Positions 53,829-63,911 are shown, numbered from the stretch's first letter. The stretch is 64,000 nucleotides of DNA from Balanoglossus misakiensis (GCA_040954595.2 CM082581.2:5572699-5636698), one strand, 5' to 3'. A program made the numbers and translations. The notes: a model not told the origin generated them from the sequence alone.

Positions 53829-54923
53829 ATGGCTATGGCTGCAGCACCTGGTCCAAGAGGGAAAGTTTTGTCTGACATCGATGAACAAATATTGATGTGT
53901 GCCATCTGTATGGAACGTTTTAAATCTCCTAAAATATTGCCTTGTTATCACACATTTTGTGAACCTTGCCTGAAAGAGTGGGTTAAAACAAACAACGGTC
54001 AGCTGATCTGTCCAACATGTAAAGAATTGCACCCTTTGCCCTCTGGAGACGTAAAAGCCATCACCAACAATCGCTTTATGAATGACCTACTTCAGCTTGT
54101 CAGCGACACCACTCCTGAGACCGAACAATCTGTCTGTGAAGGATGTGACAGTGAAGCTAAACACTGGTGCACAGACTGTGGTCAGTTCTTTTGTGATGAG
54201 TGCATTCGAGCTCACAGAGTTGTGAGGTCATTAAAAGATCATAAAGTGATGACAGTTGAAGAATACAATGAGAAAATGTCCTCACAGCATTTCAGAATGA
54301 TCCAACCACGATTCTGTGAGAGTCATCCTAGCACTCAGTTAGAATTCTACTGTGACACTTGTCAGCTGCCAACATGTATGAAATGTAGTATCGTTAAGCA
54401 CAAAGCGCCACAGCATGACATCATATCAATAGAGTCTGCGCTGGAGAAGTACATGCCAACTATGAAACAGTACACCAAGACAGTCGAGCAAAAAGTGATT
54501 GCTTTAAAACAAACAAAAAACAAAGCCCTTAACACCGGCAAGGATTATAAGGAAAAGAAAACAGTTGCCGAATCGCGGATAAAAAACTTATCTAAAAAGG
54601 TCATCAATAAAGTGAAAAAGCAAGAGGCAAAACTTCTTGCGGAAGTCAATGAAATGTATGCACCAAATTGTAAGCAAATTGATTCCAAGATAGAAACTTT
54701 AGAACATAAAATTGTCAATGCAGAAAGCATGCAATCTTATATGAATCACCTTTTGACCTTTGGTGGACCAGTGGACATCATGTCAGCCAAGAAGGAAATG
54801 GAACAACGACTTGGCCAGTGTGATCTGCATGATCCAAATGATGACGACCTTGAGAATGGACTGGTTTTCCAAGAAAATCCAAGATGCCTTCAGGTGGTAC
54901 TAGGCTGTGTCGTCAATGGCAAA
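53829..54923 (+). CDS. Gene A coding exon 1: TRIM RBCC module (TRIM56/TRIM45/TRIM2-3-like)
   Basis: [22 protein letters not shown]-box1 [19 protein letters not shown]-box2 CESH..FYCDTC..CMKC..H..H; coiled coil. Donor AAA|GTAAGT at 54924. Confidence 0.95.
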
Positions 54924-56418
54924 GTAAGTAGACTTCCTTAACTTAAATACCACAACCAATCGTTAAGAAAGTGATTGTGTCACTTGAATTACAATTGGAA
55001 TAGATGGAGTTGTGCTTGGCTCTCGTTAACATCGCTCATAGAGTCACATTTTGATTATTATTATTACAGGTTTTTTCAACTCTCAACACTTCCAATAGTA
55101 AACCTAGTCCACAGGGAGCTGTTTTTAAATCACTTTCTGCAAGCAGCAGTGAAACAACTGATCTACCCAGAAAAGGAAAAGACCCACAAGATAATGACTG
55201 TGCCATATGTCTTGATAAGATAAAGAAATCCAAAGAACTGCCCTGTAAACACAAATTCTGCAAGGCCTGCATCGACAAATCAGAGAAAAGAAGAGGACCA
55301 TCCTGTCCAGTTTGTAAGCAAGCCTTTGGACTCATCACTGGTAATATGCCTAACGGAACGATGAGAGACCGAGTGGATAGATTTTGTCATCTTCCTGGAT
55401 ATCCTCAGTGTGGTACTATTGTCATTGACTATGATTTCCCTTTTGGGACACAAGGGGTGAGAATTTAAGTGTTCTATCCTAAGCACACACATCATCAGCT
55501 GGACATGTAAAACTGACAAAACTCTTTGTTAAATTACTGATCTATCAATTGAGACACACACAATTTAAAGGATATGCAATACACTATATGTTCTTGTCAT
55601 TTGGGTTGATAAACTAACAGTGTATTCCAAATATGTCTTTTGCAGAAAGAACATCCAAATCCAGGCAAATATTACTTTGGAACAACTCGTACTGCTTATC
55701 TACCAGACAATTCTGAAGGTCGTGAAGTGTTAAAACTCCTGAAGATTGCTTTTGAACGTCGACTGACTTTCACTGTTGGTACTTCAATGACAACTGGTGC
55801 TACAGATGCTGTAACATGTAATGAGATCCATCACAAGACATCGCTTTATAGTGGACCGTAAGTTGTGTTACGGTTACAATATCAATACAATTTTCAGCCA
55901 GCATTTAAAAATACTCGGTTGTTTCTGGACCCTGTCCATGTATCTGTCTGGCTATATCTAATCTATCAATCAATCAATCAATCAATCAATCAATCAATAT
56001 CTATCTGTGTATGTCAATATTCAATCAGCATGCAGTTTCAGTCCGTACACATGCAGTTACAGATTTAATCATTTGGCAACACTTGTGAATTTTCATTCAT
56101 ATGAGATTTATAGTACCATTCAAAGTTAAAGACCATTTCGGTTTGGAAGGAATCTCACGCTGATGTTAATAGCAATGAAAATAGCTACAACGAACTGTGC
56201 GCACTGCAGGCGATCTTTTTAGACGTTATGATTTGTCATTTGAATAAAAGATTAACCAAAGAAAATGGCTTCTTTCTTGTTATTAAATAAAACATGAAAA
56301 CAGAGGTGGCCAGTTTGTTGTTAATTTGTCTAATTTCGTTTCTTCTAGGTTTGGTTATCCTGATCCAGATTACCTAAATCGAGTCAAAGAGGAATTGGCT
56401 GCAAAAGGTGTGAAGTGA
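53829..56418 (+). CDS. Gene A: TRIM(RBCC)-RING-Deltex C-terminal domain fusion E3 ubiquitin ligase, 587 aa; join(53829..54923,55070..55456,55646..55857,56349..56418)
   Basis: Four exons (1095+387+212+70 = 1764 nt) with canonical GT-AG introns in phases 0, 0 and 2, and no internal stop. C3HC4 RING, two B-boxes and coiled coil are followed by a second C3HC4 RING and the Deltex motifs [34 protein letters not shown] and [20 protein letters not shown]. Confidence 0.9.
55070..55456 (+). CDS. Gene A coding exon 2: Ser-rich linker, Deltex-type RING and start of DTC (missing from ORF track)
   Basis: Acceptor TTATTACAG ends 55069. Translates VFSTLN...[55 protein letters not shown]...[22 protein letters not shown]. 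Donor GGG|GTGAGA at 55457. Confidence 0.93.
55646..55857 (+). CDS. Gene A coding exon 3: Deltex C-terminal domain core (DTX3/DTX3L-like)
   Basis: Acceptor [75 protein letters not shown]; donor CC|GTAAGT at 55858. Confidence 0.95.
55965..55998. repeat. (ATCA)n microsatellite in the last intron of gene A
   Basis: Read directly. Confidence 0.9.
56349..56418 (+). CDS. Gene A coding exon 4: end of DTC and stop
   Basis: Acceptor TTTCTTCTAG ends 56348; (P)[22 protein letters not shown] is a typical Deltex C-terminus; TGA at 56416-56418. Confidence 0.93.
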
Positions 56419-62147: not shown

Positions 62148-63911
62148 GTGAGTAGTCGCTTTTTGACGCTACTAGTCGTTAACCATTAATTAAATTAATG
62201 TAATGATTATTTATGTGTTGTCACCATAGCAGATTGTTGGGCATGCGTAATAACATCCAGTGTCGACGTCCCTTCCAAGTTCCCAAATTACTTTTTTTTT
62301 TCTATTTATCACTTTTTTGTTTCTGATCGGTCCAATCAATTAGCAGGTTTCCAAATTAAGAACACCTGGGCTTGACGAAAAGGGCAAAATGCGAAGGGGG
62401 TCTCGAGATGACCGCGATGTTTCGGCTGCAGTGTCTCAGGTATGTGTCCACCCACCAGTGACGTGCGTATAGTCTGTTTATCGTCTACTATTAGGTATTC
62501 AGACCTGCCAGATAATAGGCGCAGTGGCCAGGTCGTTGCCAAATGTTCAAAGTACAAGTGTCGTATTGTGTACACGGCCGCAATAAATGTGCCTCGTTGT
62601 TGATGCCTGCAGACGAATCACGGACTTTAAACCGGACAATGACAAATTTTCATATGATATGTGATGAGGTCAGGTGAGTTGAGGTGAGATGAGATCAGAC
62701 GAGACGAGACTCGGTGAGGTTAGATGAGATTAGACGAGACGAGACGAGACAAGACGAGATGAGATGAGACAAGATGAGAAGTCATCTTTGTGGGGTAACA
62801 TTTACTCACAACATGACCCATCAACTCAACTATTGTATGTATGTAACTATGGTTTTGTGTTTTGCTATTCAGTCTATTTATACTCAAGTGGTGGCGACGG
62901 TCGACCTGAAAGGATTGCACATCCCTGGGAATGAACCCAAGACGGCGATAGAGGGCGCTGCCAGAGATACCGGGCTGAGCCAACACTACAAAGGAGACGG
63001 CAACACCGTCTTTTTGCAAGGAAGTTTGGAGCAAGTAACGCAGCTGAATGCCAAAATATACCGCCTGCAAAAACCTGGAAACAAGGACAACGTCCAAAGT
63101 AATTTACCAGTACATTTACACCGACAAGCTACATGTATAATGTTACCGCAGTTTACTAGTATATTGTAAAAGGGTCATTTTAGCTATCATGTTATTTTAG
63201 CTTATGTCGCTAAGATGCTGGTATTGTTAAACTTTTCTCTATATTTACAACAGTTAATGTGTCTTTAAGGCTGAATTTAAAAAAAACAGCTGCTTGTCCT
63301 TTCTCAAACTTCGCTACAACGCATGCAGCTATAAATTGAGGTGTTTTACAGTACATTCGACCTGTTTTTTAAGAACCCTATTCTTCCCCCATTGCCTAGG
63401 TAATGAAGCAGGTGACAGATCCAGAGCTGTCTCCGCCACTGCAGGGACAGCCACCACTTCTCAATCGCCCAAAGTAGCGGGCAATACACTAAGAGCTCCC
63501 AAGGTCAAGTCGACTGACGAAGAGGGCAGAAGAACGCCGCCCTTTCAGCGATACAAGTCTCTCCCAGACGGCGGTGGCTCAGCCGCGAAACGGGCTGAAG
63601 CGCCAAGATTACCGCCGTCCCGCTCGCTGGGGAACCTCTCTGACAGTGGCAAGAGATGCTACATATGTTTGAGCGACATCAGAAACCCCAGAGAGCTACC
63701 GTGCAAGCACTCGTTCTGCAAGGAATGCGTCGACAAATCAGAAAAGACGCGAGGTCCGCGCTGCCCAGTGTGCAAAAAAGAGTACGGGTTGCTGACCGGC
63801 TTCATGCCGAAGGGCACCATGCAAGACGTGGTCCAAAAAGCAAACCTGCCCGGCTACCCGTCATGTGATACCATCGTCATAACCTACGACTTCCAAGCTG
63901 GCACACAGGGG
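61032..63911 (+). CDS. Gene B (3'-partial): TRIM(RBCC)-KH-like-RING-Deltex fusion E3 ligase; join(61032..62147,62873..63098,63400..63911,...)
   Basis: Exons of 1116, 226 and 512 nt with GT-AG introns in phases 0 and 1 give 618 codons without a stop. The last visible exon ends GTQG|GTACGT, the same intron position as in gene A. The remaining DTC exons should lie beyond 64000. Confidence 0.87.
62663..62778. repeat. Degenerate pentanucleotide microsatellite (GAGAT/GAGAC/GAGGT)n in gene B intron
   Basis: Read directly. Confidence 0.9.
62873..63098 (+). CDS. Gene B coding exon 2: putative KH-like domain
   Basis: Acceptor TTTTGCTATTCAG; SIYTQVVATVDLKGLHIPGNEPKTAIEGAARDTGLSQHYKGDGNTVFLQGSLEQVTQLNAKIYRL...; donor A|GTAATT at 63099. 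This exon is needed to bridge the phase-0 donor of exon 1 to the phase-1 acceptor of exon 3. Confidence 0.8.
63400..63911 (+). CDS. Gene B coding exon 3: disordered linker, Deltex-type RING and start of DTC
   Basis: Acceptor TTCTTCCCCCATTGCCTAG ends 63399; CYICLSDIRNPRELPCKHSFCKECVDKSEKTRGPRCPVCK...GFMPKGTM...LPGYPSCDTIVITYDFQAGTQG; donor at 63912. Confidence 0.92.

Follow-up and report, generated by a model that had tools for sequence, protein, structure and literature searches.

TRIM and Deltex/DTX3L ligases are two major ubiquitin arms in antiviral defence and the DNA-damage response, and they have been studied as separate families. In a 64,000-nucleotide stretch of the Balanoglossus misakiensis genome (CM082581.2:5572699-5636698; this whole stretch is called the window below), two neighboring genes, here called A and B, appear to combine the hallmarks of both families in a single protein. 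This raises the question of whether the fusion is real and, if so, whether it arose before the duplication that produced the two copies. We consider it probable that A and B are same-strand paralogs, that in each a single-exon TRIM module is spliced in one open frame to a Deltex/DTX3L-type RING–DTC module, and that their proteins are likely dual-RING E3 ligases that would ubiquitylate ADP-ribosylated targets through an ADP-ribose-binding DTC domain. The window is eukaryotic in character, with ~40% G+C, and its closest protein matches belong to two acorn worms, Ptychodera flava and Glandiceps talaboti.

Gene A encodes a complete TRIM–RING–DTC protein

Gene A spans 53829-56418 on the plus strand in four exons, all with GT..AG borders, which together form one 587-residue frame whose sole stop is terminal. 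The encoded domain order, complete in this gene, is RING–B-box–B-box–coiled-coil (RBCC) followed by a second RING (RING2; the N-terminal RING is RING1) and a DTC domain:

53829..54923, plus strand: gene A exon 1, a complete RBCC of 365 residues with RING1 at residues 24-64, two B-boxes and a predicted long coiled-coil helix; phase-0 donor GTAAGT; Pfam zf-B_box 1.7e-13 (two stretches), zf-C3HC4 1.1e-11, PML_CC 3.7e-5.
54924..55069, plus strand: gene A intron 1, 146 nt, GT..AG, phase 0 on both sides, read from the sequence; the joint of the TRIM half and the Deltex half.
55070..55456, plus strand: gene A exon 2, with a phase-0 acceptor, a linker, RING2 at residues 409-447 and roughly DTC positions 1-39; ends in phase 0 after GTQG, at gtgaga; Pfam zf-C3HC4 2.3e-10 and DTC 6e-6 on profile positions 1-39; the RING regular expression also matched.
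55646..55857, plus strand: gene A exon 3, the DTC core including IHHKT; Pfam DTC 9.6e-32, 110 bits, profile positions 38-110 of 133.
56349..56418, plus strand: gene A exon 4, the DTC end ([22 protein letters not shown]) and a TGA stop, with a 3' untranslated region reaching at least 56610.

The tail encoded by exon 4 ([21 protein letters not shown]) agrees with the DTC ends of aligned Deltex structures, and ATTAAA/AATAAA signals lie at 56578 and 56671 in the 3' region. Introns 2 and 3 are crossed by contigs of run X3, a run that shares its sample with the DNA runs X1 and X2 and whose label, 'DNA?', is a guess. One X3 joint, 55455/6->55645/6, matches intron 2 and another, 55857->56349, matches intron 3, both with GT..AG borders, and one spliced contig extends to 56610, just beyond the ATTAAA at 56578. 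The X3 contigs on gene A (55285-56610) contain little besides exons and 3' untranslated region, and contigs of X1 and X2 lack both joints. We infer that X3 behaves like an RNA or cDNA set and that its joints are cDNA-like evidence for introns 2 and 3. X3 covers neither 54389-55076 nor gene B; because no contig spans intron 1, transcript confirmation is limited to the two downstream introns. A microsatellite, (AATC)~10, occupies 55960-55998 within intron 3.

Gene B follows the same plan and carries an additional exon

Gene B, at 61032-63911 on the plus strand, has three exons in the window that together give 618 stop-free codons. It is seen only to 63911, with its remaining DTC exons lying beyond base 64000:

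61032..62147, plus strand: gene B exon 1, a complete RBCC of 372 residues with RING1 at residues 26-66; phase-0 donor GTGAGT; Pfam zf-B_box 5.7e-13 (two stretches), zf-RING_UBOX 4.6e-10, zf-C3HC4 2.4e-9.
62873..63098, plus strand: gene B exon 2, 226 nt encoding a 75-residue domain; phase-0 acceptor and phase-1 donor, based on splice sites in the sequence.
63400..63911, plus strand: gene B exon 3, with a low-complexity linker, RING2 (residues 534-572, numbered on the partial protein) and roughly DTC positions 1-38; ends in phase 0 after GTQG, at gtacgt; Pfam zf-RING_UBOX 1.7e-9 and DTC 1.5e-6 on profile positions 1-38.

A first-pass annotation of this DNA had described A and B as sharing one architecture. 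The common plus strand, the single-exon RBCC, its phase-0 donor and the intron after GTQG are all borne out, as are the two motifs that it quoted: each coiled coil contains [12 protein letters not shown], and each RING2 contains ELPCKH.FCK.C.DKSEK.RGP.CPVCK. It had missed the middle exon of gene B, and the phase of the RING2 exon is not shared: because that middle exon ends with a phase-1 donor, the RING2 exon of gene B opens in phase 1.

The domain encoded by the middle exon shares 43-44% identity with the corresponding region in two Glandiceps predicted proteins, P0020 and P0034, and 26% with the C-terminus of Ptychodera P0002, and it resembles, by eye, two N-terminal repeats of P0031, a protein with macro and DTC domains (macro-DTC). 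AlphaFold models it as beta-alpha-beta-beta-alpha at a pLDDT of 79. A Foldseek search of the PDB returned no match at E ≤ 1e-3; the best were weak ones to hnRNP K KH3, FUBP1 KH2 and Nova KH3 (E 8e-3 to 8e-2, TM about 0.5). Pfam, taken to E values up to 10, gave no meaningful match for this exon or for the matching stretches of P0031, P0020 and P0002, with both KH_DTX3L (PF21718) and RRM_PARP14 (PF23222) unmatched. The best ESM Atlas score, 0.84, was to bacterial Secretin_N/KH-like clusters, which falls under the level that counts and is a lead only. Together, the modeled fold and its nearest structures weakly suggest a KH-like domain. Gene A is without it. In gene B intron 1, an imperfect ATGAG/GAGAC-type array lies at 62654-62779, and the open frame that runs from this array into exon 2 contains in-frame Met codons.

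Conserved residues in the two halves

A pattern check finds the full eight zinc ligands in all four RINGs (RING1 and RING2 of each gene), with RING1 following C-x2-C…C-x-H-x2-C-x2-C…C-x2-C at residues 24-64 of gene A and 26-66 of gene B. The B-boxes also match Pfam ANCHR-like_BBOX at ~2e-8. A long helix after the B-boxes is a hallmark of TRIM proteins, and the AlphaFold model of gene A exon 1, made with a 23-row alignment, predicts a continuous helix over residues 201-311 (pLDDT about 88-97) and then a second helix at 314-330. The Pfam PML_CC match is borderline in gene A (23.7 bits vs a cut-off of 23) and absent in gene B. Pfam detects no WWE domain in any exon of either gene, which places both outside the DTX1/2/4 subgroup.

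RING2 directly precedes DTC (PF18102) at the C-terminus in gene A; gene B shows RING2 and DTC positions 1-38 only. According to PMC13714323, DTX RING-DTC modules bind ADP-ribose, 3'-hydroxyl ubiquitylation of ADP-ribose requires His582 and Glu608 of DTX2 (His577 and Glu603 of DTX4), and Thr580 and Arg530 of DTX4 make contact with it. By residue count on the aligned DTX2 sequence, His582 is the first H of HHKT, and Glu608 is the E of AEL. At the aligned sites, mapped by eye, gene A reads [14 protein letters not shown] and KEEL, and it keeps the residues aligned with DTX2 His582 and Glu608 and with DTX4 Thr580 and Arg530, the positions given in that paper.

The two copies are old and constrained

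By tblastn, the protein of B finds the RBCC exon of gene A at 49% identity (E 3e-116), that of A finds the RBCC exon of gene B at 48% (E 5e-116), and the exons encoding RING2 and the start of DTC match at 65% (E about 4e-31), a paralogy well beyond chance. The same searches reveal no third copy or pseudo-exon in the 64 kb window. Domain by domain, amino-acid identity between A and B is 66% in RING2 plus the DTC start, 63% in the B-boxes, 54% in RING1, 36% in the coiled coil and 30% in the linker. RBCC nucleotides are identical at a fraction of 0.59, falling to 0.40 at third positions; taken by domain, third-position identity is 0.36-0.44 in folded parts and 0.26 in the linker.

Synonymous divergence (dS) by the NG86 method is undefined between A and B, that is, saturated, and nonsynonymous divergence (dN) is 0.23-0.62 in folded domains and 0.95 in the linker. 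The first-pass annotation had called for dN/dS per domain; dN could be computed, and no ratio follows because dS is undefined. Since synonymous sites are saturated and all zinc ligands in every RING are kept, A and B are, as judged from their sequences, old and constrained paralogs. This agrees with the earlier proposals that the nucleotides had diverged well while both frames stayed open and that both copies had long been maintained.

Taken one letter at a time, the listed variant letters are nonsynonymous in 4 of 6 cases for gene A and in 9 of 17 for gene B; these counts cover the listed part of the variant letters, may mix alleles with paralogs and are not a selection test. The copies also differ in composition: observed/expected CpG is 0.24-0.59 in the exons of A and 0.84-1.08 in those of B, and G+C at third codon positions is 0.41 in A and 0.54 in B. 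If this genome has mosaic gene-body methylation, the contrast suggests that gene A may be germline-methylated and broadly expressed and gene B not.

Fused relatives occur in hemichordates and beyond

We counted as fused any single predicted protein with both a B-box and a DTC domain. At least 10 such proteins occur across two other hemichordates, namely P0009 (601 residues), P0020 (726 residues), P0034 (673 residues) and P0148 in Glandiceps, and P0028, P0030, P0032 (about 655 residues), P0146/P0278, P0150 and P0283 in Ptychodera. Fused proteins make up 5 of the 120 listed matches to the gene A DTC exon and 10 of 33 scanned representatives (drawn from 150 listed), with the B-box first in 9 of these 10. 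Outside hemichordates they are found in the amphioxus Branchiostoma (P0039, P0147, P0152), Sardina pilchardus (P0155), the octocoral Dendronephthya (P0157) and Potamilus (P0208); Haliotis rufescens P0153 is fused with a macro domain in between, and Coilia grayii P0175 has both families with DTC before the B-box. The search for relatives that the first-pass annotation recommended thus recovers fused proteins in both hemichordates and amphioxus.

The hemichordate fused proteins are 58-64% identical to the window genes over RBCC and 58-68% over RING-DTC, and the RBCC of gene B is 58% identical to Glandiceps P0020. Source names among the relatives include 'TRIM56-like' and 'TRIM2-like', and most of the source-named entries among the listed matches to the gene A DTC exon are called DTX3L. 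For the fused Glandiceps P0009, the closest solved structures are the DTX3L DTC (3pg6, E 3e-49), the DTX2 RING-DTC (6y22) and the RINGs of TRIM3, TRIM2 and TRIM56. A search of full-text literature found no description of a TRIM–DTC fusion (supplements and subscription journals were outside its scope), and neither 'Deltex' nor 'DTC' appears in the text of PMC8195603. The architecture exists in public databases, only as unnamed predictions ("TRIM56-like/DTX3L"), and in hemichordates and amphioxus the 'TRIM56-like' and 'DTX3L' labels mask a distinct architecture.

Several of the Ptychodera proteins depart from the common form. P0028 reads ISHKS where others read IHHKT, and P0278, P0146 and P0150 have a Pfam DTC match without a second RING match and sit on very long DTC branches; from these predicted sequences, the Deltex half looks degenerate in P0028, P0146/P0278 and P0150. 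Ptychodera P0028/P0030/P0032, the unfused P0001/P0002/P0003/P0014 and macro-DTC P0031 are all listed with one longest contig, of 39,134,633 bp, and Glandiceps P0009, P0020 and P0034 likewise with one of 24,251,578 bp. The family may be clustered on one chromosome beside a DTX3L-like gene.

The RBCC exon behaves as a cassette

In the 23-row alignment, the homology of all paralogs ends after '…LVF.EN…LG.V', the point at which exon 1 ends in both A and B, whatever tail follows. The tails of hemichordate RBCC proteins include DTC, NHL (P0007, P0149), WWE plus a PARP catalytic domain (Glandiceps P0144), the Mind-bomb SH3 repeat SH3_15 (P0010), an OGFr_N fragment (P0008) and stretches with no recognised domain. 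P0144 of Glandiceps talaboti, at 1032 residues, couples an RBCC that is 53% identical to that of P0009 to the WWE and PARP catalytic domains, and its predicted domains make it a fusion of TRIM and PARP, a 'writer' to set beside the 'reader/ligase' that joins TRIM and DTC. Homology that stops at the exon-1 boundary in front of such varied tails fits exon shuffling, so that the shuffling origin suggested earlier for the phase-0 RBCC exon gains support. These genes would make a clean example of an entire RBCC cassette moved by phase-0 exon shuffling.

Trees of the two halves

We built trees of the RBCC half (25 rows) and the RING-DTC half (37 rows). Gene B groups with Glandiceps P0020/P0034 in the RBCC tree (100/99) and with P0020 in the RING-DTC tree (93/81). 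Gene A falls within a Ptychodera clade of the RBCC tree (91/88) that holds the fused P0028, P0030 and P0032 together with the shorter, unfused P0001-P0003. Because B sides with fused Glandiceps proteins and A with fused Ptychodera proteins, the duplication is older than these lineages, and on these groupings A and B diverged before this species parted from either Ptychodera or Glandiceps. The maximum-likelihood RBCC topology is (P0009, P0010), (B clade, (A clade, Ptychodera NHL/other clade)). Groups for the approximately unbiased (AU) test on this tree were named after the tree was seen; one that unites the A clade, the B clade, P0009 and P0010 is not rejected (p=0.107).

In the RING-DTC tree, the hemichordate rows, 14 in all, form one clade (97/94), made up of 12 fused rows, Ptychodera macro-DTC P0031 and the 234-residue P0026, and the AU test does not reject the 12 fused rows as a clade of their own (p=0.27). 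Elsewhere, amphioxus fused rows group with amphioxus macro-DTC (96/92) and the sardine fused row with fish DTX3L (97/93). A single clade of all 20 rows labeled fused, across all phyla, is rejected (p=3e-6); one of the 20, Saccostrea P0159, has no B-box match at E ≤ 1e-5. The trees thus indicate that RBCC–RING–DTC arose more than once across phyla, and the non-hemichordate fusions are most likely separate inventions, because those proteins group with the DTX3L-like or macro-DTC genes of their own phylum. That the fusion has been duplicated and maintained, and was gained separately in several phyla, argues for a benefit to the animal from mounting a RING–DTC predicted to read ADP-ribose on a TRIM scaffold predicted to dimerise.

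Did the fusion precede the duplication?

The first-pass annotation held that the fusion predates the duplication. The most parsimonious history that these sequences suggest, though not a proven one, has a single hemichordate fusion that was duplicated in tandem, with a tail swap giving NHL-type genes afterwards; the fused ancestor of A and B is likewise unproven. Several observations weigh against this history or against the reading of the two genes themselves. On the RBCC tree, the AU test rejects an exclusive clade of the A and B clades (p=0.0136) as well as a clade of 8 fused hemichordate rows plus the unfused P0001-P0003 that are nested among the fused Ptychodera rows (p=0.0155), and the gene A clade lies nearer to unfused Ptychodera NHL-type paralogs than to B (76/96). 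The RING2 exon opens in phase 0 in gene A vs phase 1 in gene B, the fusion joint (gene A intron 1) and the gene B junctions are bridged by no contig, and the last DTC exons of gene B fall outside the window. In gene A, Cys replaces the Trp of the WN[DE]IHHKT found in DTX proteins, and the loop before GYPDP is two residues shorter than theirs, so full DTC activity is not assured. Finally, the function of both proteins is predicted wholly from homology.

The rejection of an exclusive A+B clade requires either a later tail swap or separate captures, in which two RBCC paralogs would each have acquired RING–DTC by exon shuffling or unequal crossing-over, with no fusion before the A/B split. Along with that rejection and the unfused NHL-type sister group of the A clade, separate captures would account for the different joints (A passes to a phase-0 linker exon, B to the KH-like exon and then a phase-1 linker exon), and they would suit a cassette promiscuous enough to carry NHL, WWE-PARP, SH3_15 and OGFr_N tails and an architecture with multiple origins across phyla. 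We nevertheless judge them unlikely. The hemichordate RING-DTC halves form one clade in which monophyly of the fused rows is not rejected; the fused lineages (P0009, B and A) are a grade on the maximum-likelihood RBCC tree, where one gain and one tail swap are cheaper than three gains; A and B are adjacent on the same strand; and Ptychodera P0002, a member of the A clade, has the KH-like domain of B after its RBCC, pointing to a B-like ancestral joint. It is also conceivable that at each locus a TRIM-only gene merely precedes a DTX3L-like gene of its own, the continuous frame being an annotation illusion that the Gnomon models of relatives would repeat. Such an arrangement would sit with the unbridged intron 1 of gene A, with an exon 1 frame that stops 5 codons beyond the donor and could yield an RBCC-only product, and with the RBCC-only predicted proteins of relatives (P0001, P0003, P0154), but we find it highly improbable: the gap in gene A is just 146 nt, bounded by a consensus GTAAGT and a pyrimidine-rich AG that are both in phase 0; gene A exon 2 and gene B exons 2-3 have no in-frame Met ahead of RING2; the same domain order recurs in at least 10 predicted proteins from two further hemichordates, as well as in other phyla; and the homology of all paralogs ends exactly at the exon-1 boundary. 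The earlier argument that these are real tandem fused genes and no artefact is upheld on the same grounds. Least probable of all, in our estimate, is that one of the two is decaying instead of being maintained, gene B being the likelier candidate. Only part of gene B is visible, and 9 of its 17 variant letters are nonsynonymous in a list that is incomplete and open to paralog cross-mapping; against decay stand its 618 open codons over three exons with consensus splice sites, its intact RING ligands, an RBCC 58% identical to Glandiceps P0020 with strong clade support, and an extra exon conserved at 43-44%.

A model for the fusion and its possible role

Under the history that we favor, in which one hemichordate fusion came before the tandem duplication, a phase-0 RBCC exon would have been placed once in hemichordates upstream of a DTX3L-like gene comprising a KH-like domain, RING and DTC. 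The fusion gene would then have been duplicated in tandem, with the B lineage retaining one KH-like exon and the A lineage losing it, and the RBCC cassette would later have been re-used with other tails (NHL, WWE-PARP). In the protein, the coiled coil would dimerise the chain as in other TRIMs, and an ADP-ribose reader with its own RING would substitute for the usual TRIM substrate-binding tail. The predicted dimer would carry two kinds of RING, with DTC as both the ADP-ribose-directed targeting unit and the catalytic unit. By analogy with DTX3L/PARP9/PARP14, such a protein may act in innate immunity or stress signaling, and it would provide a natural single-chain system for studying the coupling of ADP-ribosylation and TRIM-type ubiquitylation.

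A broader interpretation, which we put forward tentatively and with some doubt, is that RBCC–RING–DTC proteins may be an undescribed class of TRIM E3 that was invented repeatedly (in hemichordates, amphioxus, a teleost, molluscs and an octocoral) and whose substrate-binding tail combines ADP-ribose reading with a further RING. The single-exon, phase-0 RBCC cassette of hemichordates would then be a mobile module, wired to DTC, to a WWE–PARP writer (P0144) and to NHL, that links TRIM scaffolds to ADP-ribosylation, probably in innate immunity.

Surroundings of the two genes

The interval between genes A and B contains, at 57485-60580, a very high-copy repeat with many internal joints. Contig depth summed over X1/X2 is about 100,000-290,000 at 59205-60236 vs about 50 on the genes, a figure that sums all contigs and is not a copy number. 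Units of 32 bp are repeated in tandem at 59485-59566 and 60098-60177, and Rfam assigns no family within 56400-61100. The repeat is probably a transposable element or satellite.

Upstream of gene A, two similar open frames on the plus strand, at 49367-49816 and 50803-51210, correspond to one and the same segment of a protein kinase domain (Pfam Pkinase, 2.1e-13 for the first and, under the cut-off, 3e-6 for the second) and look like a tandemly duplicated kinase exon or gene fragment. On the minus strand at 35578-35910, two overlapping open frames match the Pfam PT disordered repeat (8.3e-10 and 6.4e-8). Among 58 open reading frames of ≥85 residues upstream of 53700, Pfam gave no signal other than the PT repeats and kinase frames.

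Comparison with known TRIM and Deltex ligases

The N-terminal halves of A and B resemble those of TRIM E3 ligases, the nearest being TRIM2/TRIM3/TRIM56-like, in having a RING, B-box1, B-box2 and a predicted long coiled-coil helix, all in one exon. Unlike in those ligases, the C-terminal tail is a second RING and a predicted ADP-ribose-binding DTC rather than PRY-SPRY, NHL or filamin. To our knowledge, a RING–DTC tail is absent from the described TRIM classes.

The C-terminal halves resemble DTX3L and other Deltex proteins in that a C3HC4 RING leads directly into a C-terminal DTC, and gene A further resembles DTX2 and DTX4 in having the His (of HHKT), Thr, Arg and Glu described as ADP-ribose-binding or catalytic in PMC13714323. 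PMC13224862 places an RRM and five KH domains ahead of the RING in DTX3L; gene B has one small, weakly KH-like domain there. Because of this KH-like exon in B and the RRM and five KH domains of DTX3L, the back half probably descends from a DTX3L-like gene. Unlike DTX3L or DTX1/2/4, both A and B begin with a full TRIM module instead of RRM plus KH domains or WWE. Also among their closest counterparts are the RBCC–RING–DTC proteins predicted in databases, which have the same domain order and, in P0020 and P0034, the extra domain of gene B as well.

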